Source of the DNA: Octopus vulgaris
Lineage: Eukaryota
DNA length: 64,000 bases
Assembly (NCBI GenBank): GCA_951406725.2
Contig: OX597833.1
Location: 22,382,001 to 22,446,000, forward strand
Direction: 5' to 3'
Part shown: in pieces, positions 8,481-64,000 of the stretch
Numbering within the stretch: the stretch's first letter is position 1
Layout: the number at the start of each line of letters is the position of its first letter
Program-made: the position numbers and the translations under genes
Notes under the pieces: model-generated
What the model was told of the DNA's origin: nothing
The model's database searches: none
Seen by the model: the letters and a program-made list of their open reading frames with translations, nothing else

Positions 8481-8513
<33 letters not shown>

Positions 8514-8514
8514 G

Positions 8515-14319: not shown

Positions 14320-14377
14320 TTTAACACAATTAAAACTCCTGTTGACAACTTGTTTAGCTTCAGCTGATGCAATACTT

Positions 14378-26129: not shown

Positions 26130-26175
26130 CAATAATGTTACAAGTAAAACTTTATTCTTCATATATTACAAAAAA
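26130..26175 (-). terminator. Candidate minus-strand polyadenylation site
   Basis: AATAAA at 26156-26151, with upstream TGTA motifs and a T-rich downstream tract, at the end of an AT-rich 3'-UTR-like segment (26.1-26.7 kb). AATAAA is common in AT-rich DNA, so this is tentative. Confidence 0.35.
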
Positions 26176-38600: not shown

Positions 38601-39330
38601 GTTCTCAGCTACAGTTGCACTCACTTTTCTTCATATCACTATATTCTAGTCTCAGTTACTGAATTCTATATTCCTGCTGTCTCCACACTTCACTTGAAGT
38701 TGTTCTGCACCAAATTCCACTTGCCACTACCACATCTTGTCTGCACTTTATCTTCTGCATCCTCCTGTTGTCATCACCTCTGATAGTTTGCTCTGCTTCA
38801 CTTTCCTACACTGTCAGTTGCTCTCATCCACCTTTCTGTTGTCAGCACAGCAGAGTCACATTTGCTCTTTTTCATTTCATGCAGTCAAATTCTCTTCGCA
38901 GTTGCTTTTCCTGATGTACCAGTTGTTATCACACACCAGATATGGGTGTTCTCTTCCATGAACCTCTGTCACTGCTATCACAGCTCCTCATTTCTATCTC
39001 CCTGTTGCCATCACACTCCAGTTATAGTTGCTCCACTCCATCTTGAAATTGTCCCTAGATTCTCGTCACAGTTGCTCTTCTGCTTGCTCCTGTTGTCAAC
39101 ACTTCTATGTCACAATTGCTCTTCTCCATGTTTCTGTTGCCATTACATATGTCTTTGCTTCATGTTCCTCTTGTCACCAAATCCAAGTCACAGTTCACAT
39201 GCTCCATGTCCCAGTAGTTTCCATATGCCAGTCACAGCTGCTCTTTCCCATATACCAGTTGTCACATGTCAGTCACAGTTACTCTCTTCCTCAGACATAT
39301 TGTGTTCCTATTGCCATCATGTCAAGTCAC
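26700..39330. repeat. Satellite domain of diverged ~44-bp monomers
   Basis: Recurring consensus CACAGTTGCTCTGCTCCATGTTCCTGTTGTCACCACATTCCAGT; top strand strongly C/T-rich. Confidence 0.9.
32209..37280. repeat. Homogeneous 132-bp higher-order tandem repeat (3 x 44 bp), about 38 copies
   Basis: A=CACAGTTGTTTTGCTTCTTGTTCCTGCTGTTATCAAAACCCACA, B=CATAGTTGCTCTGCCCCAGCTTGCTGTTGTCACCACATTCTGGT, C=TGCAGTTGCTCTGCTCCACTTTTTTGGTGTCACCACATTCTGGT. Variation is mostly in poly-T length. Confidence 0.97.
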
Positions 39331-41661
39331 AGAACCTCGATTATGGATTCTCAACTTCATCTTGTCTGTACATATCAAGACTGTTCCACTTCGTAACATC
39401 AATAAATAGGGTCAAAGTATCTGTAATTGATTTGTTGACAATTTCATTATTACATATTTAAATAGAGGTAACAATAATAGAAAAGTACCCCATGAAGTTG
39501 GCACTAATCAATAGATTACAGGATTCATCACAATTGTTTTCTACTGACCTCAGTTTACTGCTTAATGCTGCTTCTTACTGTAGCAAGTTGCAGGTTGAAG
39601 ATATCATGAGGCTGACATGTTCCATCCAAACTGATGCTCTCTCTCTGGAACATTTCATAAGTCTTCACCAGTGTTTTGTAAAGGTTGTTCCAGCACACAA
39701 TTACCAATCAATTTATAGATGTTTCATCAAGCAGATGCTATTAATTTCCACTAATGTTCTGTTATGTTATCAATTTCTAGTGTATGCTCCATCATCTGTC
39801 AATTTCCATTTATGATTCATAACTCACGAGTTTCCTGTAGATGATCTGTCATCAGCTTGCAATTTTACAATTGCCAAATGCATATATGTTGTTATTGTAC
39901 ATGATGCCAGTTAACTATTAAAATTATCTTTGAGATTCCTATATAACTGAAAATCAATCAAGCAAAAACTGCTTCTGATCTATGATGTCATCACAATGTG
40001 TTGTAGTAGAGAAAGCAGCAAGTGAAAGATAGTACATCATGTGCTGAACACTGAATGTCTTCCATTCCATTTCACTGTCTCTTATATTGGCCTTGCCTAT
40101 GCAAGATCATTCAATGTAAACATTAAGAGTCATCATATAAATTCATGATACTACACACTTCCAGGGTTATGTAGAAGACACTGTTCTTACTTTACCACTG
40201 TCAAAAGAAGTTCAGAGATACTAATGAAATTGGAAATGAATGTCACCAGCTTCCATTAAACATTTTGTCATATTCATCACTAGCTTCTATTAAATGGTCC
40301 TTCACAGTTGCCACCACTAGTTGTCATCAGCTTCTGTTTGCAGTATGATAGTTGTCTTGATTTTATGCACAATTACAGTTCTCACCAACTTCAATCAGCT
40401 GCTTCACTAGTATGTCCCCAGTTTCCAGTAGGTATTTCACAACACAGCCACCAATCTTGAGATGATTCACGAAGACACTTGCTACCAGTTTCTTGTCAAC
40501 GATGTTCCACCACGTAGTTGTCACCAGCTGTGTCAATTATAGATATCCTCATATATTCTCTTTCACAATCCATGGATTTTTCTTTTCCTTTCACATCTGA
40601 AGTCCAGCAGTTGATAATCATTGTTGTAACACAGTAAACACCTGGTACCAGATACACAAGTTCCCACACCAAGACATGGTATCTGCAAAAGAAAATATCT
40701 GAAAAGAAAAAAAAAACTCACCGCTTCTTTCAAGCTTACAAATCAGCACTGATGTGCCACAGTCTCTTTAACATATAAATCTCTCAGATGTTCAAAGCAG
40801 TCATCAACAATCATTAGACATTGCCATTGTATGTAGAAATACTGTTTTACATATTACAAACTGATTGGCTAAGATCAGTCACATATAGAAAATCAAACAA
40901 AACCTACTTCCACTTCTTGTCCCTCAAGTCACCAATGGTAAGCAGCAACCTTAGATACCTCAGGATAGTGTTATTTTCATCAGTTTTCACCAGCTTCCAA
41001 AAGATAGTCCACAGATGCCACCAACTGTTCTGTCAGTTTCCTCAAGTTCTGTCAGTTTCATGTTCTGTCAGTTTCCTCAAGTTTCTTGTTAGTTACATAC
41101 ACATTCAATTTTGTAGATACCAATAGCCTGAAAATAAAGTAAAACAAACCTCCACTTCTTTTTGCTTCACAAGTCACCACTCAGTCACAGGGCTATCATC
41201 AGGTTCTGCTCTATGCTTCCATAGTCTTCATGCAGTCACAACTTCTCTGCTCCATATTCCATACTTATCTATAGTTGCACATGTTCCACCAATTGAAATA
41301 AGCAGCCATTAGATGATATACTATTATCACCAGCTTCCTTGAATGTTCCATCACAGTCATCTCTAGTTTGTTAAGTCACATGACCAGTCACTTTTGTAAA
41401 TTCATGGATGCTGAATATTGATCTGGTACCAATAGCATGAAAATGAAGTAAAACAAACTTCCACTTTCATCAAAAGCCCCATTGAGATTTGCTACCAGTT
41501 TCCATTACACATCTCACTAACCACCAGTACGTGGTCTGTTTCCCATCAAATGCACCACAATCTTTACTAACTTCCATCAGATGCTCCAATTGAGATTTAG
41601 CAGCAGTTTCCATTTCAATTGTCAAAGACTCTACCAGTTTTCATCTAATATTTCACCACAA

Positions 41662-41785
41662 ATTCTGCCGAGGTCGACTTTGCCATTCATCTTTTTGGGG
41701 GTCGATAAATTAAGTACCAGTTGCATATTGGGGTTGATGTAATCGACTCCCCCACCAATTTTGGGGCTATGTGCCTAGAGCAGAA
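41662..41785 (+). mobile_element. 5'-truncated SINE with TSD
   Basis: SINE core GAGGTCGACTTTGCC...AAGTACCAGTT, flanked by a 15-bp TSD AATATTTCACCACAA (41647-41661, 41786-41800). Confidence 0.85.
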
Positions 41786-44700
41786 AATATTTCACCACAA
41801 TTTTTACTATCTTCTATCAAATGTTTTGTTGCAGTTGGCACTAGCTCTCATTAGACCAGTTGGATTGCTTCATCATATTGTCATCAGTATGAAGATGTTC
41901 CACTATTTGGTTTTAACCATTTTCTTGTTGATGTTCTACCACATAGTTGTCACCAGCTTTGTCAATTATTGATGTAACCCACATTTTCACTTTGACTATC
42001 ATTTCATTTTTTTTTTTTCATTTCATTTAGTTTCACCTCACGAGATGTGGCACATGCATAGTTCATCAGCTGACAGCCACTCTTGCTGCACACTAAACAT
42101 TTGGTACCAAATACACAAGTTTCCACACAATAACAAGGTATTTATAAAAGTAAATACAAGTGAAAACCCCACCTCTTCTTCCAGTTTCACAAATCAGTAA
42201 TGATGGGCCACACACTCTTCAATACATAACTGCCTCCAGAAGTTCAAATCATCACCAGCTATCACATATGTTGGACACTTGACATCAGTAGTATGTGGAA
42301 AGTCTCTTGTTTTATATATCAATACTTGACAGCCAAGCATTATTCAAATGATAATAAACCTGAAAATGAAACAGAACATACCTCCACTTCTTGTCTCTCA
42401 GGTCATCATCAAGCTACAACTGTAGATACCTCAATGCAGGGCCATCATAAGGTTGGTATTCATTTTCAGATGCACATATTTCACCACAATTGTTACCATT
42501 TTCCATTTGGTGCATCACAGTCATTAGATGTTTTGTTCTCATCATCAGTTTCATTTGGCTGTTTCATCACAGTTAATTATTTCCAATCACTGTTGTTAAT
42601 ATGTAGCTGCTAATGATCTGATACAAATAGCCTGAAAATGAAGCAAAACAAGCCTCCACTTTTGTTTCACAGGTCATCACACAGCCTTAGATGGCACAGT
42701 TGTCACCAGCCTCTATCAGATGCTCCATCAGTATAGGACCATTATAAAACTGGTATTAATCTTTAGTTGCACATATTCCATCCTGTTGAGATGTGTCAAA
42801 ATTAGATCCTCTATTGTTGTCATCAGCTTCCTTTGGATGTTTCATCAGTCATCTCCAGTTTCTTGTCGATTCCACATTCACTTTCTTTAATGTGTAGATA
42901 ACCTGAAAATGAAGCAAAAATGTACCTCCAATTGCTTCTGCTGCCAGCTTCCACTAGACATTCCAGCACAGTTCTCATTAGCTTCCATCAGATGTTTTAT
43001 CTCAGTCAGTACACTGCTTCATCACAAAGTTGCCACCAGTTTTGTCAATTACTGAGATGCCAAAGAGGTCCTTCATGAGTATAGTAAGTACCTCTCATCA
43101 TATTCAATCACAATTGCCACCAGCTTCCAATTCCATGTTCAACAGCATCCATTATTTATCACAGGTCGTCCTTAGATTTTCCACCATACAACTGTCACCA
43201 GCTTCCTTTGAATATACCACTTTGATCACCAGCATATAATAAGATATTCCAGCTCCTTCACACTATCATCAGTAACCAGATCTTCCTTTACAAAGTTGTC
43301 ACCAGCTTCATTAATTATGGATGTCAACACCTTTACTGTCAATTCTGCTGCACACCAAACACCTGGTACTAGACATTTGAGTACCATTCAATGACAGGAT
43401 AACTGCAACAGAAACTAGCTGAAAAGAAAATCTCACCACCTCTTTCAATCTCACAAATAAGCAATGATGTGCCAGTCTCTTCAATGCAAAAAGGTTGTCT
43501 CAAATGTTCAGATCACCAGCCAACATATATGATGTTGAACACTAGACATCACTCTGCTATAAGGAAATTCTTTTGTTTTACATATCTGTTGACTGTCAAA
43601 TCGTTGCATTACAATAATCCTGAAACTGCAACAAAAAAACCCCACTTCTTGTCTCTCAGGTCACCAGATAGTCGACTGTTATCACCAGATTCTATTAAAT
43701 GTTCCACTGTTGTCACTGACATGTCATTTGCTTCCTTTGCATGTTGTAGTGTAGTTGTCAGTAGATTCTTGTCAGTCACACACACATTCACTTCTGGTAA
43801 ACAGGGGGATACCAGCAATTGATCAGATAATCTGTAAATGAAGCAAAACATACCTCCACTTTTTGTATCATAGGCCAATCTGTCAGACATCACTTTAAGA
43901 TATTCCATGATACTTGCTAGTTTCTATTAGATGCTCCATCACAGTTGTTCATAAGAATGTATCAACTTCCCTTGGATGTTTCATCAGTCATCACCAGTTC
44001 TGACATGCATCTGTACATTCACTTTTGTTAATAAGAGGGTCTCATGATTGATAAGATGTCAACAACCTGAAAGTGATGCAAATAATACCTCTACATCCGT
44101 TTATTGCACAGGCCAGTCTGTTAGACACAACTTTAAAATATTCCACGACACTCGCCACAAGTTTTCTGTAGATGCTCTAAGATTTCACAAGATTCCACTG
44201 GATGGCCTATCACAGTTGCTTTCATTAGATATTCTGTCAAATTAATCACCAGCTTACAATAGACATTCCATCTCAGTTGTCAAGACCTTCCAGATATCCT
44301 ACCGCAATGTCAAGTTTCCAATACAGATGTCACCAGCTTCAATTGCACATTCTAGTAAAGTTCTCATTAGCTTTCATCAGATAATCTGCCATAGCTGTCA
44401 CCAACTTTCATTCCATACTCCATCACAAGTATCCATTACTTATTGTGTTACACAACTGTCCTCAGAGATGTACATCACAGTTGTGGCCACTTTCCTTTCA
44501 GATATGTTCCATCAGTTTTCAATGGCTTCCATTAGGTATACCACCACATTCATCACCAACTTCTAATAAATATTCTATCCCACTTTTCACCATAGTTGTC
44601 AGTTTTGTCAATTACAGATGTCATCCTCATATATTCACAATCGATCCTTTCTCTTTCTCTCACATGTATAGTTCAGCAGTTGACAACCGTTGTTACACAA

Positions 44701-45944
44701 ACATCTGGCACCAGATACACAAGTTCCATGCAATGACAGGATATCTGCTAAAGACAAACTCACTTCTTTAAAAATTCCAGGTTTTTCACAACTGTCATCA
44801 GCTTCCTTTGGACATCTAATCCGTTATTAGCAGTTCTTTTCAGTTGCATGCACATTCACTTTCACTAATATGTGAATGCCAGTGATTGATCAGCTACTAA
44901 TAACCTGAAACTGAAGCAAATCGTACCTCCACTTCTTCCTCTCAGTCAATTACAACTTTTAGGATACTTAACACAAGTTTCCATTTTTTGTTTCACAAAG
45001 TCATCACTTCCATTAGACAGCCTGTTGCATTTGTCACTAGCAACGATTCCATGTCCTTCATATGGCAGTCATTATTTACCATGTAACACAGTTGTCATCA
45101 ATGTTCTAAATCAGAGCCATTACACTTTCTTTTCAGATATGTTAGACCAGCTTCCTGTAGATTGCTTCATCATACTGTCATCAGTAGCCAGATATTTCAC
45201 CAAAAACTGTCACCATTTTCCTTTGAAAGATGTTCCATGTGAATGTCAGTTTCTTCAATTATGTCACTATTAGAATTCCACTTTTCTCTTCTTCTCTCGA
45301 ATGAATAGTCCAGCAGTTTATGTTTTATACAATACAATAACCACCTGGTACCAGATACAGTCACTGAATAGGAACTTTTGTATCTGTAATAAAAAATAAA
45401 TCTCACTTCTTTCAATCTCCCAAGCCAGTTTCCATTTCATGGTCATCACATTTGCAATCAACTTTCATCAGATGTCCAGCCACTGCTGTCAGGTCGTCAG
45501 TTTCTATTAATTGTCCAGCCAGTTGCCACCAACTCTATACCAGATGACCTACCATAACTATTACTAGTTTCCATTGCACTTATGGACAGACACATTAGAT
45601 ATCAAAGAGCCTAAAAATGAAGCAAAACAAACCACTTCATATCTCCCAGCTCAGTAGTCAGTCAACAACTGTGGATGTCTAAAGACAGAGTCATCATAAC
45701 TTTGGTAATAATCATCAGTTGCATTCAATCACAATTGCAACAAGCTTTCATTAAATGTTCCATCACACAGTTGTTATCAGTTAATAGTCAATGATAAATG
45801 TCATCCTCAGCAAGAAGAGAAAATACCTAAAAAGAGCTTGCTAATCTCCAGATGTTCAATCACATTTCTCATCAGTCACCAGATGTTCCATCATGGTCAC
45901 CATCAAGTCAAGAGATGTTCCATCAGTTGCCACTATCAGTCACG

Positions 45945-46085
45945 AGATGTTCCATCACTGCAACCATCAGTGTCCAGATGTTCCATCACTGCCACCATCA
46001 GTGTCCAGATGTTCCATCACTGCCACCATCAGTGTCCAGATGTTCCATCACTGCCACCATCAGTGTCCAGATGTTCCATCAGTTG
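45945..46085. repeat. Short 31-bp tandem array (~4 copies)
   Basis: Unit AGATGTTCCATCACTGCCACCATCAGTGTCC. Confidence 0.85.
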
Positions 46086-46359
46086 CCACCAGTCTCCTGA
46101 TGCACCATCACAGTTGCCATATGTTCCATCACTATTGCTTTCAGTCTCCAGATGCTGCATTGCAGTTGCCAGCCTCTAGATGTTCAATCATTGTTGGTGC
46201 CAGTCTCCAGATACACCACCAGTCTCTAGATGTACCATCACACATCACCAGTTGGTTGTCAATTATAGATGTTATCCTTATCTGCAAAAGAAAATATCTG
46301 AAAGCAAGACTCACCAATTTCCATTAGATGTTTCAATGCTGTTGCCATCAGTCCCTAGA

Positions 46360-47530
46360 TGAACCATCATAGTTGCCACCAGTCTCCAGAAATTCCATCA
46401 CAGTTGTCACCACTCTTTAGACATTCCATCAGTTGCCACCAGTCTCCAGATGTTCCATCACAGTTGCCACCAGTCTCCAGATGTTCCATCACAGTTGCCA
46501 CCAGTCTCCAGATGTTCCATCACAGTTGTCACCAGTCTTCAGACGTTCCATCACAGTTGTCACCAGTCTTCAGACGTTCCATCACAGTTGTCACCAGTCT
46601 TCAGACATTCCATCAGTTGCCACCAGTCTCCAGATGTTCCATCACAGTTGTCACCAGTCTTTAGACATTCCATCACAGTTGTCACCAGTCTCCAGACGTT
46701 CCATCACAATTGCCACCAGTCTTCAGATGATCCATCACAGTTGTCACCAGTCTTCAGACATTCCATCACAGTTGTCACCAGTCTTCAGATGTTCCATCAC
46801 AGTTGTCACCAGTCTTCAGACATTCCATCAGTTGCCACCAGTCTCCAGATGTTCCATCACAGTTGTCACCAGTCTCCAGATGTTCCATCACAGTTGTCAC
46901 CAGTCTTCAGATGTTCCATCACAGTTGCCACCAGTCTTCAGACATTCCATCAGTTGCCACCAGTCTCCAGATGTTCCATCACAGTTGTCACCAGTCTCCA
47001 GATGTTCCATCACAGTTGTCACCAGTCTTCAGACGTTCCATCACAGTTGCCACCAGTCTTCAGACGTTCCATCACAGTTGCCACCAGTCTCCAGATGTTC
47101 CATCACAGTTGCCACCAGTCTCCAGATGTTCCATCACAGTTGTCACCAGTCTTCAGACGTTCCAGCACAGTTGTCACCAGTCTTTAGACGTTCCATCACA
47201 GTTGTCACCAGTCTTCAGACGTTCCATCACAGTTGTCACCAGTCTTCAGACGTTCCATCAGTTGCCACCAGTCTCCAGATGTTCCATCACAGTTGCCACC
47301 AGTCTCCAGATGTTCCATCACAGTTGTCACCAGTCTTCAGACATTCCATCACAGTTGTCACCAGTCTTCAGACGTTCCATCACAGTTGTCACCAGTCTTC
47401 AGACGTTCCATCACAGTTGTCACCAGTCTTCAGACATTCCATCACAGTAGTCACCAGTCTTCAGATGTTCTATCACAGTTGTCACCTATTTCCAAACGTT
47501 CCATCATGGTTGCCACCAGTCTCCAGATGA
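46360..47530. repeat. 31-bp minisatellite (~38 copies) with interspersed 28-bp variants
   Basis: Unit CACAGTTG(T/C)CACCAGTCT(C/T)CAGA(T/C)GTTCCAT; variants lack CAC. Confidence 0.95.
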
Positions 47531-48004
47531 TCCACACAGTTGCTACTAGTTTCCTTTAGATATAAAAAAGCCTGAAAATGAAGCAAAATGAGCCTTGTCT
47601 TTCTACTTTAGTGACCAGTCCTTTGGATGTTTGTAGATGTTTACAACAGGTTAAATTTATACCATTCTATCACAATTGCCAACAGTTTTCTTTAGATGTC
47701 CTGTCACACATTTTACCAATTTCCAGTCAATGTTCAGTCCACCAGAAGCAGTTTCCATTGTATATTCCATCAGAAAATCATCAAGGAGATTCTACCAAAT
47801 AGTTATCACCAACTTCTCAGGAATGTTCCATCACACAGGTGTCACCAGTCAATTGTAGATGTCATCCTCATCTGCAAATGAAGAACCTGAAAGAAAGACT
47901 TGCTAGTTCTCATTAGATGTTCCATCACAGCTGCCACCAGTTTCCAGATGTTCCTTCACAACTATCATTTAGCATTCCGGGGATGCCACCAGCTTCCATT
48001 GGAT

Positions 48005-49458
48005 CGGCTTGCAACTCGGCACCTTGAGGGGCAAGTCGATGCCTTCGGATAGCGTCATGGGACGTTGGACGGAGTGCCCGGTTAAGCTGCTAGGGGTTTG
48101 GTTTGGACCAAACCTCCAGGTAGAAAAGAACTGGGCAGAAGTATCGAGCAAGGTGACCTGCATAGTCAAGAACTGGTCTTGGCGGTGGCTATCCTTGAAA
48201 GGGCGGGCGGAGGTGGCCAATGTGTTTATCGCATCGGTCATCATTTACCGCCTAACCGTCGTGCCCTGTCCCGCTTTGTGGTTGAGCAAGCTGGAGAGGC
48301 AGATCTCCCGCTTTTTGCGGAAGGGCACTACTCCTCTTGTGAGGCGTCCTATCTGCTGCCAGAAGCCGTTGAATGGAGGACTGGGGATGCCTTGGCCGTT
48401 GATGCGCAAACATGCGCTGAGGTTTAGGCATCTCTGGCTACTCCTGAATGGTGAACAGGTGTGGTCTCCGTTCGCGAAATGGATGTTTCCCAGGTTCACT
48501 AGTTTCAGTGGACAAGAAAGCTGGTTCTTTCGTAGATCGAGGTTGGGTACATGGTTTACGGAGTGCCGTAAAGCACTCCTACAGTTCCATCACTCGGGTA
48601 ATGCTAGCGGTTTTGGTACCACCACATTTTTCTATAGCAGGTTGGTAGAGGCTGGGAACAACGATACCCTAGGTCTCGGAGATAACCAGTTAGACAGTCT
48701 GTTCCGAAGGACGTTCGGGCCAGGTTGTTTGGATAATTTCCAAAAATCCCTGGCCTGGCAATGTTACCGAGGAGCCTTACCCGTTCGAGATAAGCTCGCA
48801 CGACACGGTCAAACTACCACTGCTGACTGTCCAAGATGCGGACGGGATAGGAAACTGTCCTGCATGCTATTGTTCAGTGTCCGGGTGTGTCTGAAGTGTA
48901 GGCTTATGCAGAACATCTACTGTCAGGTTTGGGAAGAGTACAGCTGTCATCTGAGTCAATCGTAAAAATTGACCTGCCGGATTTCCTCACAAAAGAAGTT
49001 AACCAATGTTTTCTCGCTGTAGTAACAATAGCAAAAGAGGTGGTCTGGAAGTCACAAATGAAAGGTTTAGCGACAGGCAACCTCATCTCCGGTCTCGGGT
49101 TGGTGAGATATTTTATCTTCCACCTTAGAAGGAAGGTGAGGCTGGAGAGAAGATGCCATTCAAAGAAAATGTTCAAAGAAAGATGGTTGCATGTTGCGAG
49201 GGTGCTGGGAATGAAAGATTCCTCGTGAACATGTCATAAGTCTGCATACAAAAGTTTCAGTAGGAGAATGGGGCTTGTGGGGTCGGAGCATAAGCCATCT
49301 CTCTGCTTCATCTCATTTTTGTATTTCGTCTTTGTTGTATCTCATTCGATTTCATTTTATTTTGTAAAATTTTAAAAGTCATATAATCATTGTGTGTCTG
49401 ACCCCAATCAGGCTATACTGTCCCCCTCTATGTTTGGGCCCTTGTGGTTAATAAAGAA
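48005..49458 (+). mobile_element. 5'-truncated L1/Tx1-clade LINE (RT C-terminus, zf-RVT region, 3' UTR)
   Basis: KLLGVWF, LSLKGRA, GGLG and GALPVRDKL..CPRCG motifs; frameshift near 48850; 3' end AATAAAGA; 7-bp TSD ATTGGAT (47998-48004, 49459-49465) splitting a host repeat unit. Confidence 0.9.
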
Positions 49459-52059
49459 ATTGGATGTTCTACCAGTTGTCACAAGTCCTCATTTTATGTT
49501 TCAGGACAGCTACCACCAGTCCCCAATAGAAGTTTCATCACAGATGACATACACATGTGCAAAAAAAATATCTGAAAAGAATTCCTATTCTTTCAATCTC
49601 ACAAATTGGCAATGACATGCTAGTCTTTGATAAATGAATCTCTTCCAAATGTCCAAATCAATAGTCATCACAATTCACATCACTGTGCTTTGTGGAGATT
49701 TTGTTAGCAGCTTTCATCAGGTGTTCTACCACACTTTCAACCAGTCTTTGGTATGTGTTCCATCACAGTTGTCACCAGTCTCCAGATGATCCCTCAGTTG
49801 CCACCCATGTCTGATTCATTAGGTTATCAAAAAGCCTGAAAATGAAGCAGAATGAGTCACTTCTTTCATCCAATGTCATCAGTCCTGATGATATTTGTAG
49901 ATGTTTAAGGTAGGTCCATCATAATCATTAGATGCATTCCACTGTAGTTGCATAAAACTTCCATTATATGTCCTGACATCCATTTTACCAATTTCCAGTA
50001 GATAATTTTCTATTAGCTAAGACCAGCTTTCACACTGTTTTCCATGGGACAATTTTCTTTAAGGAGACACAGTCACAATCTTTTCACAATACAATTATCA
50101 CCAATTTGATGTCAATTATAGATATCATCCACACCTATAAAAAATGAACTCAAAGAAACAACTCGCCTCTGCTTTTAGTTTCATAAAATGGCTATGATTT
50201 GCTACAATCTCTTCAATGTACATAGATCTGCCTAATATGTTGAGATCATCAGCAATCACGTTTTACAAGACATGTGCTGTGTGCAGATTCATTTGTTAGC
50301 AGTTTTTATTAGGCATTTCAGAGCCATCAACAGCTGTCATTGTGTATTCAATCAGTTACCACCAATCTCCATTGGAAGGTCCACCACCTGGTTGCTAATC
50401 CACATTAGCTGTTGCCCTAGTTACCAATCTCCAGATGTTCCATCAATAGTGCCATCAGTCTCTATCATCAATCTCCAAATGATATACCAGCTTCTTGTCA
50501 GATTCATTAGATATCTAAAGACCTGAAAATGAAGCAGAATGAGCTACTTTCTGAGTCACCAGTCCTGTCATATTTGCTGATATTTACGGCAAGTCAATCA
50601 TAACTCTGGAAATATTCATTAGTTGTATTCCATCACAACTGCCAACAACTTTCATTACATGTTATATCACCCATTTTATCAGTTACCAACAGATAATGTT
50701 CAATTAGTCAGCAGCAGCTTCCACATCACCATTACCCTCAGGGAGTTTCCCCACATATACATGCCACCAATCTGTCAGAAATTTTCCATTACACAGTTAC
50801 CACCAGTTGGTCATCATTACAGATGTCACTTTTAACTGCAAAAGAAGCTACCTGTAAAAAGAAATGCACCTGTCTCCATTAGATGCTCTATCACAATTGC
50901 CACCAGCCAAATGCTCCATGACAACTTTCACCAGTCTCCAGATGCTCCACTACAGTTCATTAAACATTTTAGAGACGTCACCAGCCTTCCTTATGTGTTC
51001 TATCAAAATTGACATCAGTCTCCATCTGTTCCAGTGCAGTTGCCAACAGATTCCATTAGATGTCGCATTGCAGTTGCCACCAGATTCAATCAGATGTTGC
51101 ATCGCAGTTGCCAGCAAATTCTATCAGATGTTGCATTGCAGTTTCCATCATATGTTGCATCACAGTTGCCACTAGTTACCTTCGGATGTTGCATCGCAGT
51201 TGCCATTGGCCTCCAGATGATACACCACAGGTGTCACCAGTTTCATGTTGGACACATTACAGATGTAAAAACAAAAGCCTGAAAATGAATCAACATGCAC
51301 CATTTCTTTCCTTCTAAGCCACCAGTCTTGGTGACACTTGTAGATGTTCATGTCAGGGCAATCATAACTTTGGTAAGAATTAGTTGCATTCCATCTTAAC
51401 TACCAACAGTTTTTATTAGATGTTCTGTTGGTCAGCATAGCTTCCACCAATTTGTCACAATATCTTCCATCCAACAATTGTCGCCTGTCGATTGTCAATT
51501 GCAGATGTCATCCCCATCTGCAAAAGAAAAACACTTCTTTCCACCTCACAAATAGCCAGTCTCTTCAATATATAAAGCTGTCTCAGATGTTCACAGATCA
51601 TCATGTTTCACAATAAACATCACTATGCTTTGCTTTTCTAAGCAAATTACACTAGTCATTTCAGTGCTGTCATCAGCTCCTATTAGATGTTCTACCAGTT
51701 ATCAGTCTCCATCACAAGTGCCATTATATTTGGCATCAGTAACCAGATGTTCTATCATTTTGTTTCCACCATTTTCCAAATTTCCCATAAACGTAGACAA
51801 TCCATAACACATGTCACTAGTTGCCATTAGAAGTTTCACCACACATATTATTATCATAGGCAAAGGAAAGTACATAAAAAGAACTCTTCTTTCAGTCACA
51901 CAAATCAGCAATGACATGCCAGTCTTAACAAAATATAAAGCTGCCTCAGATGTTCAAATCATCAGCAGTTATCACATTTCACAACAGATATCAGTGTGCT
52001 ATGTGCAAATTCTTTTGATTGCAGCTATCATTAGGCTTTCCGGAGCTGTCACCAGCTTC

Positions 52060-53910
52060 ATTAGATGTCCCATCATAATCGACACCAGTCTCCACGAGAT
52101 GTCCCATCATAATCGACACCAGTCTCCACGAGATGTACCATCACAGTTGTCACCAGCCTCTGTGAAATGTACTATCGGTTTCCACCAGCCTCCATCAAAT
52201 GTTCCATCATAGTTGCCACCAGCCTCCATTAGATGTTCCAACACAGTTGCCACAAGCCTCCGTGAGATGTACCATCAGTTTCCACAAGATGTTCTATCAC
52301 AGTTGTCACCAGTCTCCACAAGCTGTTCCATCGCAGTTGCCAGCCTCCGTGAGATGTACGATCACAGCTGCTACCAGCCTCCATCATATGTAGCCTTACG
52401 GTTGACACCAGTCTCTGTAAGATGTACCATCACAGTTGCCACCAGCCACTGTGAGATGTACCATCAGTTTCCACCAGCCTCCATCAGATGTACCATCAAA
52501 GTTGCCACCAGTCTCTGTGAGATGTACCATCACAGTTGCCACCAACCTCCACAAGATGTTCTATCACAGTCGCCACCAGCCTCCACAAGATGTACCATCA
52601 CAGTTGCCACCATCCTCCATGAGATGTACCATCAGTTTCCACCAGCCTCCATCAGATGTTTCATCACAGTAGCCACCAACCTCTGTGATATGTACCATCA
52701 AAGTTGCCACCAGCCTCCACCAGATATTCCATCACACATTCCACCAGCCTGCATCAGATGTACCATCAAAGTTGCCACCAGCCTCCATTAGATGTTCCAA
52801 CACAGTAGCCACCATCCTCCAGGAGATGTACCATCATAGCTGCCATTAGTCTCGATAAGATGTTCTATCACAGTCGCCACCAGTCTCCACAAGCTGTTCC
52901 ATCACAGTCGTCACCAGTCTACATAAGCTGTTCCATCACATCGCCACCAGCCTCTGTGAGATGTACCATCAGTTACCACCAGCCTTCATCAGATGTACCA
53001 TCAAAGTTGACACAAACCTCCGGGAGATGTAACATCACAGTTGCCACAAGCCTCCGTGAGATGTACCATCACAGTTGCCACCAGCCTCTGTGAGATGTAC
53101 ATCACAGTTGCCACCAGCCTCCATCAGATGTTTCATCACAGTAGCCACCAACCTCCGTGAGATGTACCATCAGTTTCCACCAGCCTCCATTAGATGTTCC
53201 AACACAGATGCCACCAGCCTACATCAGATGTACCATCAAAGTTGCTACCAGTCTCTGTGAAATGTACTATCACAGTCGCCACCAGCCTCCACCAGATGTT
53301 CTTTCACACTTTCCACCAGCCTCCAACAGATGTACCATCAAAGTTGCCACCAGCCTCAATTAGATGTTCCAACACAGTTGCCACCATCCTCCGGGAGATG
53401 TACCATCACAATTGCCACCAGCCTCCATCAGATGTACTATCACCGTTGCCAACACCCTCCATCAGATGTACCATCACAGTTGCCACTAGTCTCCACAAGC
53501 TGTTCCATCACAGTCATCACCAGTCTGCACAAGCTGTTCCATCACAGTCGCCACGACCTCCATGAGATGTACCATCACAGTTGCCACCAGCCTTCATCAG
53601 ATGTTCCACAGTTGCCACCATCCTCTGGGAGATGTACCATCACAGTTGCCGCCAGTCTCCATGAGATGTTCCACCACACTTGCCACCAGTTTCCACGAGA
53701 TGTTGCATCAGTTGCCACCAGCGTCTGCGAGATGTACCAACACAGTTGCCACCAGCTCCCATCAGATGTTCCAACTGTTGCCACCAATCCCCACAAGCTG
53801 TTTCCATCACAGTCGCCACCAGTCTCCATGAGATCACAGTCGCCACCCGTTTCCACTAGATGTTTCATCACAGTTACCACTAGAGATTTTCCACCACAGT
53901 TGCCACCAGT
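52060..53910. repeat. ~34-bp diverged minisatellite
   Basis: Unit CACAGTTGCCACCAGCCTCCATCAGATGTACCAT; its right part is duplicated at 54841-55616. Confidence 0.85.
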
Positions 53911-56900
53911 TTTCATTACATATATAAAAAAAGCCTGAAAATGAAGCAAAACATACCACTTCTTTTCTTTTAAGTCATCAGTCCTGTCAACATTTTTAGA
54001 GTAGGACAATTATAACTTTGGTAAGAATTAATTGCATTCCATCATCATGGCTAGCAGCTTTCATTCGGTGTTCTGTCACATTTTTTGCCAAACCTCCACC
54101 ATATAGCCACCGTCAATTTGTCACAATTCTTCCATCATACAGTTGTCACCAGTGTCATCTCATCTGCAAAAGAAAATATCTGGAGATACTCACCTCTTCT
54201 TTCAGTTTCACAAGTTGATAATGATCAGCCACTCTTTTTCAATATATAAATCTCAGAAGTTCAAATTATCACCATCACATTTCACAATTCTCATGGAGAC
54301 TGGCGGCAACTGTAAGCGGCTTCCATTAAATGTTCTACCAGTTTTCACCAGCTTTCATCATGTCTATCATAGTTGACACCAGTCTCCAGATGGCCTATGA
54401 TACTTGCCATATCTCCATCCCAGTTGTCAATCTACAGATGTTCCACCACACTTAATCTCATCTACAAAGGAAAATAACTGAAAAGAATCCTTCACCCGGT
54501 CTCATAAATCAGTAACAATGTGCCACAGTCACTTCAGTTATGAAGCTGTCTCAAATGTTCAAATCATCACCATTGATCTCATTTTACAATAGACACCACA
54601 GTTGCAAATCTCCATCAGAAGTTCCACAATTGCCAGTTTCCATCATCAGAAGTTCTATCAGAGTTGCCAGTCTTCATTATAAGTTCCACCACTGCTGTCA
54701 TAAGTAACCAGATGTTCCATCAAATGTTGCTTTCTGTTAGTAGATGTTCTATAATTGTTGCTATCAGTTTTCAGATGTGCCAGAGTTGTCACCAGTCTCC
54801 AGATGCTCCATCATTGTTGCCAGATGTTCCATCTAAGTCATCATCACAGTAGCCACCAACCTCCGGGAGATGTACCATCAGTTTCCACCAGCCTCCATTA
54901 GATGTTCCAACACAGATGCCACCAGCCTACATCAGATGTACCATCAAAGTTGCTACCAGTCTCTGTGAAATGTACCATCACAGTCGCCACCAGCCTCCAC
55001 CAGATGTTCTTTCACACTTTCCACCAGCCTCCAACAGATGTACCATCAAAGTTGCCACCAGCCTCAATTAGATGTTCCAACACAGTTGCCACCATCCTCC
55101 GGGAGATGTACCATCACAATTGCCACCAGCCTCCATCAGATGTACTATCACCGTTGCCAACACCCTCCATCAGATGTACCATCACAGTTGCCACTAGTCT
55201 CCACAAGCTGTTCCATCACAGTCGTCACCAGTCTCCACGAGCTGTTCCATCACAGTCGCCACCACCTCTGTGGGATGTACCATCACAGTTACCACCAGCC
55301 TTCATCAGATGTTCCATCAGTTGCCACCATCCTCCGGGAGATGTACCATCACAGTTGCCGCCAGTCTCCATGAGATGTTCCACCACACTTGCCACCAGTA
55401 TCCACGAGATGTTGCATCAGTTGCCACCAGCGTCTGCGAGATGTACCAACAGTTGCCACCAGCCTCCATCAGATGTTCCAACTGTTGCCACCAATCCCCA
55501 CAAGCTGTTTCCATCACAGTCACCACCAGTCTCCATGAGATCACAGTCGCCACCCGTTTCCACGAGATGTTTCATCACAGTTACCACTAGAGATTTTCCA
55601 CCACAGTTGCCACCAGATGTTCTATCACAGTTACCACTAGCCTCCAGATGATCTGTCATAATTGCCACCAGTTTCTTGTCTGATTCATGAGATATTGAAA
55701 AACCTGAAAATGAAGCAGAATGAGCAACTTCTTCCCTCCTAAGTCACCAGTCCTATAAATATTTCTAGATGTTTGGGACAGGTCAATCACAATTTTGGAA
55801 ATATTCATTAGTCTCCACCAGATGCTCCACAAGAGCTGCCACCAGTTTCCATTAGATGTTCCACCACTTAACCTCATCTACAAAGGAAAATAACTGAAAA
55901 GAATCCTTCACCCAGTCTCATAAATCAGCAACAATGTCTCAAATGTTCAAATCATCACCACTGATCTCATTTTACAATAGACTTCAGTGCTTTGAGATTT
56001 TTTTGTTAGTAGTTTTCATTAGCAATTCCAGGGTTGTTGCCAGCTTCCATTAGATGTACTGCCACAGTTGTCACCAGCCTCCTTCAGATGTTCAATCAGT
56101 TGCCACCAGTCTCTTGATGGATCTACCACAGTTGCTACAGCTTCCAGATAATCTACCACAGTTGTCACCAATCTCTTGTCTGAATCATTAGATATCAAAA
56201 AAACCTGAAAATGAAAAGCCAGTTCTTTTTTCCTGAGATAACTAGCCCTTTCAAGACTTGATTAGGGCAGGTCCATCATAACTTTCATAATAACAATGAG
56301 TTGCATTCCATTCTAACTGCCACCAGCTTTCATCAGATGTCTGGTCACCCGTTTTACCAATTTCCAATAGATAATGTTCATTGGTAGACACTATCTGCCA
56401 CTGTGTTTTTTAACAGGCAATTATTCTCAAGGAGATTCCACAATTTGTTATACATCTACTAGAGTTGTCATTCACAGGTTGTCAATTATAAATGTCATCC
56501 TTATCTGCAAAAAAAAAATACTCAGAAAGAAAACTCACCTCTTCTTTCAGTCTCACAAATCAGCAATGAGCCACAGTTTTGACAATACATAAAAATTGTC
56601 TCAGAAGTTCACAAATAATCATATGTTTCACAACAGACAACACTACACTCTGAATATTCTTTTGTAAGCAGCTTTCATCAGACATTTCAGCCATCTGCTT
56701 ACATTATGTTTCATCGCAGTTGCTATCAGTCTCTAGATGTTCAATAGTAGTTGTCATCAGTCTCCAGATACTCCATCACAGTTGCCAAGAATCTTCAGAT
56801 GCTCCACCAGTTACCACTAGTATCTTGTCTGATTCATAAAGATATCAAATGCCCAAAAATGAAGCAAAATGAACCACTTCTTTCCTCCTAAGTTACCAGT

Positions 56901-59900
56901 CCTCTCAACATTTGTAGATGATTAGGACAGGATAATCAACTTTGGTGAGAATCATTGTTGCATTCCATCACAATTGCCTTCAGCTTTTTCATTAAATGTT
57001 CCATTTGTCACAAACTTATCTCTTCTTTCAGCCTGAAAAATCAGTAATGACAAGCCAGTCTCTTTGATATATAAAGCTGTCTCAGGTGTTCACAAATCAT
57101 CACCAACCATTACATTTCACAACAGACACGGCTATGATATGCAGAGATTCTTTTGTAAGCAGCTTTCATTGGACATTCAGAACTGTCATCAGCTTCCACA
57201 AGTTGTTCTACCACAATTGTCACCAGTCTCCATCAGATGTTCCTTCACAGTTGCCACGTCTCCATCCACTGTTCAATTGCAATTGCCATCTATTGTTCAA
57301 TTGCAGTTGTCACCTGTCTTCATCTGATGTTCCATCACAGTTGCCACTCTCCAATAGATGTTTCACCTCAGCTGTCAATTTCTAATCAGAATTATATACA
57401 CAGTTGCCACCAGTTTCTTGTCTAATTCATTAGATAATAAAAAGCCTGAAATGAAGCAAAATGAGCCAACTCTTTCTCCTAAAGTTACCACTCCTGTCAA
57501 CATTTGAATGTTATCCTCATCTGCAAAGTAAAGAAAAAGTGACTTGTCTCTAGATATTTTTTCACAGTTTCCACCATTCTTCGTAAGATGTTCCATCACA
57601 GTTGCAACCAGCTTCCATCAGATGTACCATCAGAGTTGCTACCAGCCTTCATCAGATGTACCATCACAGTTACCACCAGCCTCCATCAGATGTACTGTAA
57701 TTACCAATCTCCTTCAAATATTCCATCATAGTTGGCACCAGTCTTCATTAGATGTTCTACAGTTGCCTCCAGTTTCTTGTTTCACCAATTACACATACAA
57801 AAAAGCCTGAAAATAAAGGAAATCAAACCACTTTTTCTTCCCAAGACATCAGTTCTGTAAACATTTGCAGATTTTAAAAGTTCTATTAGTAGGCACCATC
57901 TTCCACTGCATTATCCATCAGAGGTTCCACCAAAGTCACAAATGTTCCATCATACAACGGTCTCCAGTTGGTTGTCAATTACAGATGTCATGCTTATCTT
58001 CAAAAGAAAAACTCACCCACAGCCTCTACAATATACAAAGTTGTCTCAGACGTTCAAGTCACCACCAGCCATCAAATTTCATAGTAGACATCACCGTTGT
58101 ACTTGGAGACTTGTTTTATGTATCATCCATGCACTGCCTAAACAAGATAAACCTAAAATCAAAAACAAAATGTACCTCCACTTCCATCATGAGCCTGGCA
58201 ACATCACTATTCACATGTTCCATTACAGCTGTCCAATGTTCCACAGTTGCCATCATTCTCCATTAGATGTTCCATCCCAGTCACCACCAGTTTCCAGTAG
58301 ATGTTCCATCACAATTGTCACTAGTCTATTGTTTGATTACAGTTGCCACTAGTCACCATTAGAAGTTTCTCTCTGTTGCTATCAGCAAACAGATGTCCAA
58401 TCAGAGTTGCTAGCAGTCACCATTAGAAGTTCCAGCTTGCTTGCCATCAATTGTCAGATGCTCCATCACACTTGCCATTAGTCTCCAGATGTTCCACTGT
58501 AATTGCCACCATTCTCCATTAGATGTTCCATTGCAGCTGCCACCAGTTCTCATTAGATGTTCCATCCAAGTTGTCATTAGCCTCCATCAGGTGTACCATC
58601 ATAATTCCAGCCAATTCTTCTTTTGATATACATTCACAGATGCCACCAGCCTCCATCAGATCTTCCATCACAAATGTCTGTCCACAGTTTGTCTCACCAA
58701 TTTACATATACAAAAAAGCCTGAAAATCAAGAAAATCATAGCACTTCTTTTCCAAGTCACCAGTCCTGTTAAATTCATAGATGTTTAAAAGTAGGTCCAT
58801 CATAACTTTGGTAGTAATCTAAACTTGCATCCCATGAAAATTGCCGTCACCCTTTTTACCAATTTCCAGTAAATAAATGTTCTATTAGAAGGCACCATCT
58901 TCCACTCTATTTTCCATCAGACAATTTTCCTCATGGAGATTCCACCAATGTCATAAATCTTCCGTCATACAGCTGTCTTGGTTGGTCATAAATTACAGAC
59001 GTCATACTCATCTGCAAAAGAGAACTTTAAAAAGAAAAACTTACCTCTTCTTTCAGTATTGCAAATCAGCAATGATGAACCACAGCCTCTTCAATATACG
59101 AAGTTGCCTCAGATGTCCAAATCATCACCAGCCATCAAATTTTGTAGAAAATGCCACCTTGGTACTTGGAGATTCTCTTGTTTTATTTATGACCTGCCAG
59201 ACAATGGTCACATAACAATAAACCTGAAATTAAAACAAATACCTCCACTTCCATCATGAGCTTGGTAAAAATCATTATTCACATGTTCCGCAGGTGCCAC
59301 CATTCTCCATTAGACATATCATCACAGCTGCTACTAGTCCCCATTAGAAGTTCCATGACGGTTGCCATCATTTTCCAGATGTTCCATCACAGTAGCCACC
59401 AGTTTCCATCAGACATTCCATCACAGTTGTCACCAGTCTCTTAACCGAATCATTCCATGTCATAAAACCTGAAAATGAACCTCTTCTTTCCTCTTAACTT
59501 GCTAGTTCTCTTGGAGTGAGACGTCATTCTCGTCTGCTAAAGGCATTTCATGGAGAAAAGTCTCCAAGCATTTATTCAGTTGCCATCAATCATCAGATGT
59601 TTCATCGCAGTTGCCACCAGTCTTCATTAGTTGCTCCATCACAGCTGTTACCAGTCTCTATCAGATGTTCCATTACAATTGCTAGTCTTAAATGTTCCAT
59701 CACAGTTGCCTCCAGTTTCTTGTCTCACCAGTCACAGGGACGAAAAAGCCTTAAGATCAAGGCAATCAAACCACATTTTTCTTCCCAAGTCACCAGTCCT
59801 GTTAACATTTGCAGTTGTATATAAACAGGGCCATAACTTTGGTAGTAATCTAAATTTGTATTCTATGAAAACTGCCAACAGCCTTTCTACCATTTTCCAG

Positions 59901-62900
59901 TGCATAAATGTTCTATTAGTAAGCACCATCTTCCACTGTATTATCCATCAGACAATTTTCCACAAAGAAATTCCAAACAGCTGTCACCAGTTGGTTGTCA
60001 ATTACAGATGTTATTCTTATCTGCAAAAGAAAACATTTGAAAAGAAAAACTCACCTCTTCTTTTTGTGTCACAAATCAGCAATAATCTATAGTCTCTGCA
60101 ATATACTAAGTTGTCTCAGATGTTCAAATCACCATCAATTCTCATTAGATGTTCCAGAGTCTCTACCATTTTTTGTTAGACATTCAATCGCAGTTGCCAC
60201 AAATTTCCATTAGCTGTTCCATTGCAGTTGTCACCACAGATTCAAATCTCCACTAGAAGCTCCAAAGTTGTCACAAGTTTCTTGTCTGACTTGTTAGATT
60301 CTAAAAAACCTGAAATTAAGCAAAACAAACCACTTCTTTCCTCCAAAGTCACCAGTCAACATTTGCAGATGTCCAAAGGCATGTCTACAGTAACTTCGAT
60401 AATAATCACTAGTTGCATTCCATCACAACTGCCACCAACTTTCATTACATGGTCTGTCCGCGTTTTGCCAGTTTCCAGTAGACTGTTCTATCAGTAAGCA
60501 TAAACTACTGTAGTACATCCTACCAGACAATAATCCTCAAGCAGATTCTACCATATAATCAATTTGTCACAAATATTCCATTAGGGAGTTCTCACCAGCT
60601 GGTTGTTAATTACAGATGTTATCCTTATCTGTGGAAGAAAAACTCACCTCTTCTTTCAGTCTCACATGATGAACCACATTCTCTTCAACATATAAAGCTG
60701 TCTCAGAAGTTCACAAATCCTCAACCATCTTCTTTCACAATAGACATCACTGTGCCATGTTGAGGTTCACTTGTAAGCAGCTTTCATTAAATATTTCAGA
60801 GCTGTCATCAGCTTCCATGAGATGTTCTACAACACTTGCCACTAGTCTTCATGTTCCATCACAGTTGCCAGTCACCATCAGCCTCCAGATGTTCAATAAG
60901 TTGGCATCAGTCTCCTGATAATCCACCATAGTCATCACTACTTCCTTGTCCAGTTCATTTGATACAAAAATGTCTTGCAGATGTGATCCTTATCTGCAAC
61001 AGAAAATATCTCAAAAGCAAAACTAACCTCTTCTTTCAGTCTCACAAATTGGTAAAAGTGACCAGTCTCCAGACGTTTTTCAGTTGCCATTCGTTGTTCT
61101 GTTACCATTGCCATTAAAGTCCTCATACTCCATGACCATTGCCACAAGTCTCCATTAGAAGTTTCATGACAGTTGCCTTCAGAAACCAGATGACCCATTA
61201 CAGTTGCCAGATAACAGCAGCCACCCACATCCATCAGACATTTCATCACTCTCCCAATAGCTTTCCACAGTTGCCATTAGTTGCTCTATCCTGTTGCCAC
61301 CAGTCCCAATCAGATGCTTCTTCACTTGCCACCGATGTCCACATCTTCCATGACCATTGCCACCAGTTACCATCAGAAACTAGATGTTCCATCAGTTGCC
61401 AGATGTTCTATCACAGTATGAACTTTAACCATCAGTTATTCATCACATGTTCTCCATCAGATGTTCCACCACAGTTGTCTCCAGTTTCTTGTCTCACCAA
61501 TCACATAGATGAAAAAGCCTGAAAATAAAGGGAAGCGAACTACTTCTTTCCTCCCAATCAGTTCTGTGAACATTTGCAGATACTGGTCCATCATAACTCT
61601 GGTGGTAAGCTAATTTTCTGCAGATACATTTATTTGTACACACCATTATCCATCAGACGATTTTCCTCATGGGAGATTCCACAAAAGAGTCACCACCAAC
61701 TGGGAAAAATCTTTCTATCATACAGATGTCATCATCTGCAAAACAAAAAACATCCACAAAGAAAATCTCACCTCTTTTTTCAGTCTTGCAAATTGGCAAT
61801 ATATGAAGTTTTCTCAGATGTTCAAATCATCACCAGCCATCAAGTTTCATAATAAACATTGTTGTAGTACTTGGAAATTTTCTTGTGTTACCATCACTTG
61901 TCAACTGCCAATTGGACGCACAAGAATAAGCCTGAAATTCAAAGTGTACCCTGCACATCTATCACAAGCTTGGTAACAGAACTATTCACATTCCCTTACA
62001 GCTGTCTTTAAATGTTCCAGTCTCCACCATTTTCTGTTAGATGTTCCATCATAGCTGCCACACAGGCCATTAGATGTTCCTATCACAGTTGATACAAGTG
62101 TCCATTGGATGGCCAAGAAGTTCCTAAGTTGTCACCAGTTTCTTCTTTGACTTAAGATAACAAAAATCCTGAAAATGAAGCCAAACAAAGCATTTCTTTC
62201 TTCTAAAGTCACCAGTCAACATTTGCAGATGTCCACATGCAAGTCCACCATAACTTCAATAATTAGTTGCATTCTATCACAATTTCCAATAGATTATATT
62301 CCATTTGCAGGCATCAGCTTATATAATACATCCTACCAGACAATTATCTTCAAGATTCCATCATGTAGTTACCATCAAATAGTCACAAATATTTCATCCA
62401 AAAATTGCCACCAGTCCTTTGTCAATTACAGACATCATCTGCAGAAAAAAATACCAGAAGATAAACTCACCTCTTCTTTCAGTCTAACAATTTGGCAATG
62501 ATGAACCAGTCTCTTCAACATATATAGCAGTCTTAGAAGTTTACACATCATCAACAACCATCAGGTTTCATAATAGACATCACTATGTTGAGGTTCTTTT
62601 TCAAGTAGCTCTTATTAGATATTTCAGAGCTGGCACCAGCCTACATAAGATTTTCAACCACACTTGCCAGTCTTCATTGTATTGCCAATCTCCATCAGAT
62701 GTTCTAAAGTTGCCATTGATCTCCAGATGTCCAACAAGACTTGCTATCAGTCTCCAAATGTTCAATCAGTCAACACTACTCTCCAGATGATCCACCATAG
62801 TTACCACTAGTCCCTTGTCCAACTCCTCAAATATGAAAATGTCTGAAAACAAAGCAAAAGAAACCACTTCTTTCCTCCAAATTTACCAGTCTTGTTGACA

Positions 62901-63654
62901 TTTGTAGATGTCCAAACACGTGTGCACAGTAACTACGATAATAATTAGTTGAATTCTATCAAATATTTCGTCCAAAAGTTGCAACGAGTTGGTTATCAAC
63001 TACAGATGTCATCCACATCTAGAGAAAAAAATAGTCAAAGAAAAGCTCACCTCTTCTTTCAATCTCACTAATTGGTGATGATGAGCCAGTCTCTTCGATA
63101 CATGAAGCTGTTTCATTATGTCTTAAAGCAGACACCACTAAGCTATGCAATGATTCTTTTCTAAGCAGCGCTTATTAGGAATTCAGACCTGTCACCATTT
63201 CCATTAGTAGTTCTGCCACATTTGTCACCAGTGTGTCATATGTTCCATCACAGTCGCATCCAGTCACAAATCTTTTATCATAGAGCTGTCTCCAGTTAGT
63301 TGTCAATTATAGATGTCATCATTTTCTGCAAAAGAAAACCTCAGAGAAGAAAAACTCACCTCATCATTCAGCTTCACAAATCAGCATAGTCTCTGCAATA
63401 TACAAAAGTTGCCTCAGACACTCAAATCATCATCAGTCGTCAAGTTTCTTTGCAAGCATCGTTGAGGTACTTGGGAGTTTCTCTTGTGTTACCATCACTC
63501 ATCAACCGTCAAATACTGGACAAATGAAAATAGGCCTGAAATTCAAGCAAAATGTACCTCCACTTCAGTTTCCAGATGTTACATCACGGTTGGTACCCAT
63601 CTCTAGACATTACATCATGGTTGCCACCAGTCTCCATAAGATTCTATTACAATT

Positions 63655-63890
63655 GCCACCAGTGCCCATCAGATGATTCTATTAGTTGCCACCAGTCACT
63701 ATCACATGTTCATCTGTTGCTACCAGTCACCATCAGCTGCTCCAGCTTTTGCTACCAGTCACCATCAGATGCTCCACCTGTTGCTACTAGTCACCATCAG
63801 ATGCTCCATCTGTTGCTACCAGTCACCATCAGTTGCTCCATCAGTTGCTACCGCTCACCATCAGATGCTCCATCAGTTGCTACCAGTATT
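63655..63890. repeat. 32-bp tandem array (~7 copies)
   Basis: Unit CTACCAGTCACCATCAGATGCTCCATCAGTTG. Confidence 0.8.
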
Positions 63891-64000
63891 ATCTCGAACT
63901 CCATGAAAATTGCTAACAGCCTTTTCTACCAATTTCCAGTAAACAAATGTTCTATTAGTAGGCACCATCTTCTACTGTATTATCCTTCAGACTATTTTCT

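Follow-up and report, generated by a model that had tools for sequence, protein, structure and literature searches.

Paired, alternating splice-site modules at a single octopus locus, and the possibility that their non-coding RNA docks U1 and U2AF

The 64,000-nucleotide (nt) stretch of the Octopus vulgaris genome analysed here (assembly GCA_951406725.2, contig OX597833.1, positions 22,382,001 to 22,446,000; hereafter the window) carries on its minus strand a long array of short modules, each of which sets a sequence resembling a 5′ splice site (donor) a few tens of nucleotides before one resembling a 3′ splice site (acceptor). The locus is on chromosome C20, an autosome in the 2.8-Gb octopus genome. 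We also examined 200 kb beyond the window, and positions above 64000 are extended coordinates. The 96 modules, 56 of a type we call A and 40 of a type we call B, form one array with a median spacing of 286 nt that spans 79100 (extended) to 39947 on the minus strand, over 40 kb; about 15 kb of the array, with 24 type A and 18 type B minus-strand copies, lies past the window end. The modules within the window, with one example of each kind of span discussed below, are as follows.

39947–63557, minus strand: type A modules, 32 in this range, each with a purine run, a weak GT or GC donor-like site and, about 22 nt on, an acceptor of the form TTCATTTTCAG followed by G
40683–63359, minus strand: type B modules, 22 in this range, each with GAAAGAAGAG followed by a GTGAGT donor, a U tract and, about 30–39 nt on, the module's own acceptor, TTTTGCAG followed by AT
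42360–42381, minus strand: example of a 22-nt type A span, bridged unspliced by contigs of three runs
58720–59044, minus strand: example of a candidate normal-sized intron of 325 nt, from a type B donor to the next type A acceptor, retained in contigs of runs X8 and X16

The type A modules correspond to cassettes that an initial annotation, made from the letters of the sequence, had put at about 30 and had illustrated with 11 named spans. We count 32 between 39900 and 63600 on the minus strand, and all 11 spans are confirmed there, eight as GT..AG of 22 nt, two as GT..AG of 23 nt and one as a 22-nt GC..AG. An AG follows 15–24 nt from the donor position in 28 of the 32 modules (one copy is mis-anchored in this count), the donor starts with GT in 20 and with GC in 5, and GT..AG at 22–23 nt is present in 15. 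A 32-nt cassette gave 22 matches at 10 or fewer mismatches over 39900–63570, compared with a mean of 0.04 and a maximum of 1 in 50 Markov-3 controls, and the plus strand had none at 11 or fewer. Across the whole array GT is absent from 19 of the 56 type A copies. At position 58155, a variant in runs X16 and X18 changes the TTTTAG of one module to TTTCAG, the consensus acceptor.

While the cassettes were described correctly, the same range holds a second kind of module that this inventory missed. Type B reads GAAGAG/GTGAGT, with its own AG about 34 nt on, and its donor is stronger than that of type A; GTRAG is absent from 10 of the 40 copies in the whole array. The two types alternate, as 70 of 95 neighbours differ in type, against a mean of 46.6 and a maximum of 65 in shuffled orders. 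From a B donor to the next A acceptor is a distance of 207–775 nt (25 pairs, median 302 nt), and the A-to-B 'exons' have a median length of 265 nt. GGTGAGT occurs 23 times in the array where 6.0 are expected, and TTTTCAG 38 times where 4.6 are expected. When the 2.8-Gb genome was searched with patterns for each type, 13 of 13 type A matches and 5 of 5 type B matches fell at this locus, and there were no control matches. Some 70 nt before the type B donors (for example at 57100–57075) there is a TGATGA-N7-13-CTGA block that looks like a C box joined to a D box. It is found 18 times on the minus strand and never on the plus strand, no other block of type B is as well conserved, and it has no consensus fold.

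Conservation of the splice signals was measured on copies found via profiles of the upstream flank and not via the motif, although the profile seeds came from motif matches. Removal of near-duplicates took the A2 subtype from 35 to 25 copies and type B from 36 to 26, and changes were counted on flank-only trees against base-matched flank columns, with gaps uncounted and gene conversion not in the model. For type A this is a test of A2; A1 and A3, 22 copies that include 10 of the 11 named spans, stand outside it. The flanks of the tested copies match their consensus at 72–83%. The A2 acceptor has undergone 27 changes where 61.4 are expected (P<0.0001) and its AG 2 where 9.6 are expected, while the A2 donor has changed as its flanks have, with 8 against 8.8 at GT and 26 against 24.3 from GT to +6. 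Type B shows the opposite: GTGAGT has 12 changes against 22.3 (P=0.013), GT by itself 3 against 6.9 (P=0.067) and the purine run 21 against 41.2 (P=0.0007), all 20 ungapped copies have G at +5, and the acceptor, at 48 changes against 44.8, is not conserved above the flanks. On these counts, what type A preserves is its acceptor and what type B preserves is its donor, and the natural intron would therefore run from a B donor to the next A acceptor (median 302 nt), not across 22 nt. The earlier observation that acceptors are kept while donors are more degenerate holds for type A, and the alignment of copies that had been proposed as a check comes out divided, the type A AG being better kept than the flanks and the GT only equal to them. 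What finds no support is the 22-nt geometry as a pairing of working splice sites, as the type A donor it needs is no more conserved than its surroundings.

The array is present in assemblies that we take to be transcriptomes. Between 86 and 98% of the words sampled from 39500–45800 occur in 14 runs, from four studies, that were guessed to be RNA, and four further RNA-guessed runs contain almost none of them. The RNA-guessed assemblies comprise 40–119 million letters, against 2263–3828 million for two genome-sized runs, and it is because of this small size that we treat them as transcriptomes. Contigs of 6 of the 24 runs were compared along 39300–46340 and 55650–64000. In the first stretch, contigs of X1, X8 and X12 are unbroken over 39300–41691 and about 41705–45960 with 0–1 gap letters, and those of X14 are more fragmented; in the second, X8 contigs cover 55884–59438, 59410–60347 and 60992–62234, among others. 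Module-crossing contigs reach 4.3 kb with 0–4 gap letters, and among the longest contigs listed at least one bridges 38 of the 43 modules in these stretches unspliced; the transcriptome-sized assemblies concerned come from five studies. The named span at 53935–53956 lies outside the compared stretches, and that at 63536–63557 is bridged by no listed contig. Of the 11 B-to-A introns, seven are spanned end to end by contigs that retain them, and no listed contig spans the remaining four.

The 19 joints listed in the two stretches (11 and 8), most of which have short sides, include none with splice-site ends, and the gaps listed include no 22-nt deletion. Contig breaks at 60346, 60880 and 62235 recur in the genome-sized (DNA) run X18, and the loose ends followed at 63050 and 63565 correspond to paralogous modules. 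Rare variants are lost from contigs, and 87 and 15 further loose ends in the two stretches lay outside the listing, so this evidence speaks for the main form of the RNA and leaves room for minor junctions. Each cassette had earlier been cast as either an exit or an entry, with combinatorial skipping or back-splicing as the outcome. A trace of that division is visible in the conservation, with A as entry and B as exit in alternation, but the predicted outputs are not seen among the 19 listed joints, and combinatorial splicing as the dominant form finds no support in contigs that cross the modules uncut. No contig spans the whole locus, and the strand is read from motif polarity and from a T>C skew: of the 17 differences listed in 39.3–46.3 kb, 13 of them transitions, nine are T>C on the plus strand (P=0.001 among the transitions), as would be expected from adenosine-to-inosine editing of a minus-strand RNA. 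Contig depth in X8 and X12 is 116–206 at 39–46 kb and about 5–17 at 56–63 kb (X18, about 35–47 where covered); the drop would fit 3′ bias, but depth cannot rank the parts of a gene, and we do not use it as evidence.

The locus encodes no protein. Minus-strand frames in the array reach at most 144 amino acids, the three longest array frames tested apart from an insertion described below have no Pfam match, and a Pfam scan of 134 frames, mostly from the flanks, returned above its cut-off only retroelement domains outside the array. A coding repeat or a series of small exons was rejected on the length of that longest frame and the lack of an array Pfam match, and no coding exon was found in or beside the array. 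Rfam placed no family in the array, its only hit being a ribosomal RNA (rRNA) fragment at 23423–23666, and gave no MALAT1, ENE or mascRNA-type match. A host array for small nucleolar RNAs or microRNAs finds no support, with no known family match and no conserved hairpin, the hairpin itself having been rejected by weak folding z-scores, RNAalifold and covariation. A U12-type intron was likewise rejected, as the donor is unlike what we take to be the U12 consensus.

Several other features interrupt or adjoin the array.

26003–26656, minus strand: AT-rich tail with five AATAAA, outside the two contig-compared stretches
26700–39400, minus strand: 12.7-kb purine-rich block of a 44-bp repeat (132-bp higher-order unit), without splice modules
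41659–41748, no strand given: fragment of a dispersed high-copy element within the array, presumably SINE-like (short interspersed nuclear element)
46326–47554, minus strand: 31-bp tandem repeat block, an array spacer
47973–49450, plus strand: array-interrupting insertion with a 330-amino-acid open frame and no Pfam match, which we take to be a LINE (long interspersed nuclear element) fragment
52050–55640, minus strand: 34-bp tandem repeat blocks

Followed along the minus strand from first to last, the locus comprises a CpG-normal region near 84000–92000 (extended) with a TATA-like word near 88470, several acceptor-like sites at 79000–82000 (extended), the module array, the 44-bp block and the AT-rich tail. 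The CpG-normal region is a putative promoter, the 44-bp block is probably the final part of the same transcript, and the tail at 26003–26656 would be its 3′ end. CpG-poor repeat sequence with strand skew extends from about 26700 to 79100 (extended). The 31-, 34- and 44-bp units have a core motif in common, the 31- and 34-bp blocks lying inside the array, and a search that skipped very common words found the 44-bp block at one locus. A promoter-proximal tandem repeat (extended 76300–78200) retains CpG, with an observed/expected ratio of 0.68 for 76–80 kb, and downstream copies of its unit (46326–47554) show TpG/CpA and a ratio of 0.03–0.27; this gradient between repeat copies likely records methylation decay along one transcription unit. 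On the minus strand at extended 79380–80570, three strong acceptors have GT directly after them (AG/GT), the shape of a recursive splice site, and may be ancestral to type A. Recent tandem duplications within the array, at extended 63263–74512, measure 2.1–2.6 kb at 92–94% identity and 1.1 kb at 99.4%. The copies are units of one amplified repeat and not independent, and for this reason the module count by itself is no evidence of function.

Downstream of the array, a separate multi-exon coding gene lies at 8200–14330 on the minus strand, with an apparent first exon near 14330–14248. We take it to resemble CTU2, a label that is unconfirmed: a PF10288 search was blank, a PDB search was uninformative, and Atlas gave only a TtuA/PP-loop lead at 0.85–0.88. 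An element resembling a long terminal repeat (LTR) retrotransposon, with gag, reverse transcriptase and integrase Pfam matches in several frames, occupies 18500–23300 on the minus strand, and close to it the rRNA fragment, 244 nt resembling small-subunit rRNA, is on the plus strand.

We suggest that the locus gives rise to a non-coding RNA of about 55–60 kb in which the modules are retained, U1 docking at the type B donors and U2AF at the type A acceptors, and which is thereby nuclear; we give this reading a probability of about 0.45. A U1/U2AF docking array in place of true introns had been one option in the initial annotation, and it is the one that fits best. The reading draws on the two module types, their alternation, the split conservation, the single locus, the lack of coding frames and the uncut contigs; the strand, start and end of the RNA, and its continuity as a single transcript, we infer. 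In the mechanism we propose, amplification of an exon–intron–exon unit, its intron about 300 nt long, would have left each conserved site next to a partner nearer than the spliceosome can use, at 22 nt in type A and about 34 nt in type B. The close partner would stall splicing assembly, many stalled sites would hold the RNA in the nucleus, and throughout the RNA U1 would keep premature cleavage in check. Nuclear retention is reported to be promoted by 5′ splice-site motifs and by the binding of U2AF65 (PMC6199362), and U1 sites to retain Malat1 in the nucleus (bioRxiv 10.1101/310433); these are precedents for the proposed retention of the array RNA through U1 and U2AF. It is a more doubtful proposal that about 96 self-jamming modules stall dozens of early spliceosomes per molecule, and so seed a speckle-like body or buffer splicing factors.

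A number of points weigh against the docking array. The two sites supposed to do the jamming, the type A donor and the type B acceptor, are no more conserved than the flanks, which weakens a mechanism built on their being too close. About 5 of the 26 type B copies have lost the donor by deletion, and when gaps are counted the type B GT (75%) is no better kept than the flank (P=0.44). Upstream of B, the block TGATGATTTGAA, which has no connection with splicing, equals B's own sites in conservation (0.89), although it lay within the profile used for searching. The signal of selection can also be imitated by gene conversion and by the anchoring of the alignment. That the runs are RNA is a guess from the size of their assemblies, 45–118 million letters against a 2.8-Gb genome. 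The T>C skew is absent in 55.6–64 kb, and three of the sites are common to all four runs and therefore possibly alleles. AATAAA is low (0.20 against 1.29 per kb), but a selected depletion of poly(A) signals was rejected, with 8 found where composition predicts 11.1. Finally, the cellular location and protein binding are argued from sequence and from other RNAs.

Much of the same evidence can be read without a role for the sites. An exon–intron boundary may have been caught in a repeat unit and amplified, after which the sites were ignored and left as a neutral relic, whatever the RNA does; we consider this rather unlikely. Amphioxus repeats that span splice boundaries leave splicing undisturbed (PMC3087553), duplication here is ongoing (2.1–2.6 kb at 92–94% and 1.1 kb at 99% identity), many sites have decayed (the 19 type A copies lacking GT and the 10 type B copies lacking GTRAG), and the contigs give no sign of splice-site use. 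Such a relic sits poorly with an A acceptor and a B donor region that change at about half the rate of base-matched flanks, in copies whose flanks match consensus at only 72–83%; moreover, the amphioxus repeats occupy a single boundary in a coding gene that is spliced, whereas the octopus array lacks a coding exon and has two kinds of site in alternation along 40 kb.

The split conservation is also what would be left by B sites used as donors and A sites used as acceptors, and the 25 B-to-A pairs, with their 265-nt 'exons', have the dimensions of ordinary detained introns. Splicing from a B donor to the next or a farther A acceptor (about 200–780 nt) in a minority of molecules, or in an unsampled tissue or state, giving isoforms or circles, could go unseen in contigs that drop rare variants. 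We hold this to be unlikely, since 7 of the 11 B-to-A introns lie complete within contigs (no listed contig spans the others), no listed joint has splice ends and several breaks recur in the DNA-sized run X18. It is very unlikely that the modules are RNA structures (a purine arm paired with a U-rich arm, the donor in the loop) or box C/D-like elements whose likeness to splice sites is incidental. Single B copies do fold with GAAAGAAGAG paired to the U tract (84% of cells pair), and the 18 C/D-like blocks keep to the minus strand, but folding z-scores range from +0.93 to -1.72, RNAalifold gives no consensus structure in three alignments, covariation equals that of shuffles (1 pair against 1.7) and the array holds no Rfam family. 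It is more improbable still that the 22-nt spans are true micro-introns cut by an unusual spliceosome. The regular GT..AG spacing in 15 modules in range would suit them, and introns of about 25 nt are reported for some ciliates. Against this, the contigs cross the spans intact with no 22-nt gap among those listed, the donor is not conserved, and the human ultra-short introns screened in PMC4463651 measure 37–65 nt.

The docking array has partial counterparts among known systems. LL2R, a tandem-repeat architectural RNA of chicken (bioRxiv 10.64898/2026.03.19.712899), is like the octopus locus a repeat array at a single locus, dense in predicted splice sites and with few polyadenylation signals; it is transcribed on one strand and proposed to be poorly spliced and to gather small nuclear ribonucleoproteins and SR proteins. 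The octopus locus is likewise a one-locus non-coding repeat array whose dense splice sites stay unused. LL2R has a threefold excess of donors, whereas octopus donors and acceptors are paired at 22–34 nt and alternate, and its recruitment was imaged in oocytes, whereas the octopus RNA is known here from sequence and assemblies; LL2R serves as a close precedent for the proposed function. Long non-coding RNAs (lncRNAs) of the Malat1 type are also long and unspliced with U1 motifs (bioRxiv 10.1101/310433; PMC6199362), but the octopus locus is several times longer, is built of repeats and appears to end at AATAAA signals. In the amphioxus 'mirage' minisatellites (PMC3087553), splice boundaries are tandemly amplified and the extra AG/GT ignored, as at the octopus locus; a mirage repeats a single coding-gene boundary in units of 10–160 bp, whereas the octopus array has two types at a median of 286 nt, no coding exon, and motifs that outlast their flanks. 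The host-gene boundary that marks a mirage is missing; what looks like the first exon of the nearest coding gene lies near 14300. Zmast and Zfest are, like the RNA proposed here, long non-coding transcripts of octopus, both on chr16 (Z) (bioRxiv 10.1101/2024.12.09.627507). Identity with either was rejected, because the locus is on C20, whereas Amnionless, the Zfest host, maps to C16. It is plausible that the octopus locus resembles LL2R or the Malat1-type retained RNAs in how it works, a likeness that does not by itself establish membership of either group.

Steric exclusion between splice signals has a classical precedent in alpha-tropomyosin exons 2/3, whose mutually exclusive splicing comes from two signals too close for joint use. 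That gene yields two spliced coding isoforms, whereas none are seen at the octopus locus, which has no coding frame. In the octopus lncRNA literature as partly available to us, including PMC9712504 and PMC9115989 and with many journals outside this coverage, we found no description of the locus, and its transcript may already be present in genome annotations as unnamed lncRNA pieces. What is new is the set of paired, alternating modules with split conservation. Beyond vertebrates and insects, the architectural nuclear RNAs described so far are, to our knowledge, few. With a single-locus candidate that recurs in assemblies from several studies, one could ask directly in cephalopods if splice sites that cannot be used, set in arrays, are able to hold an RNA back and form a nuclear compartment. 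The 56 type A and 40 type B copies have diverged, and among their sites are intact, GC-variant and deleted ones; they also make up a natural series in which site strength and spacing could be related to U1 and U2AF binding and to residual splicing.

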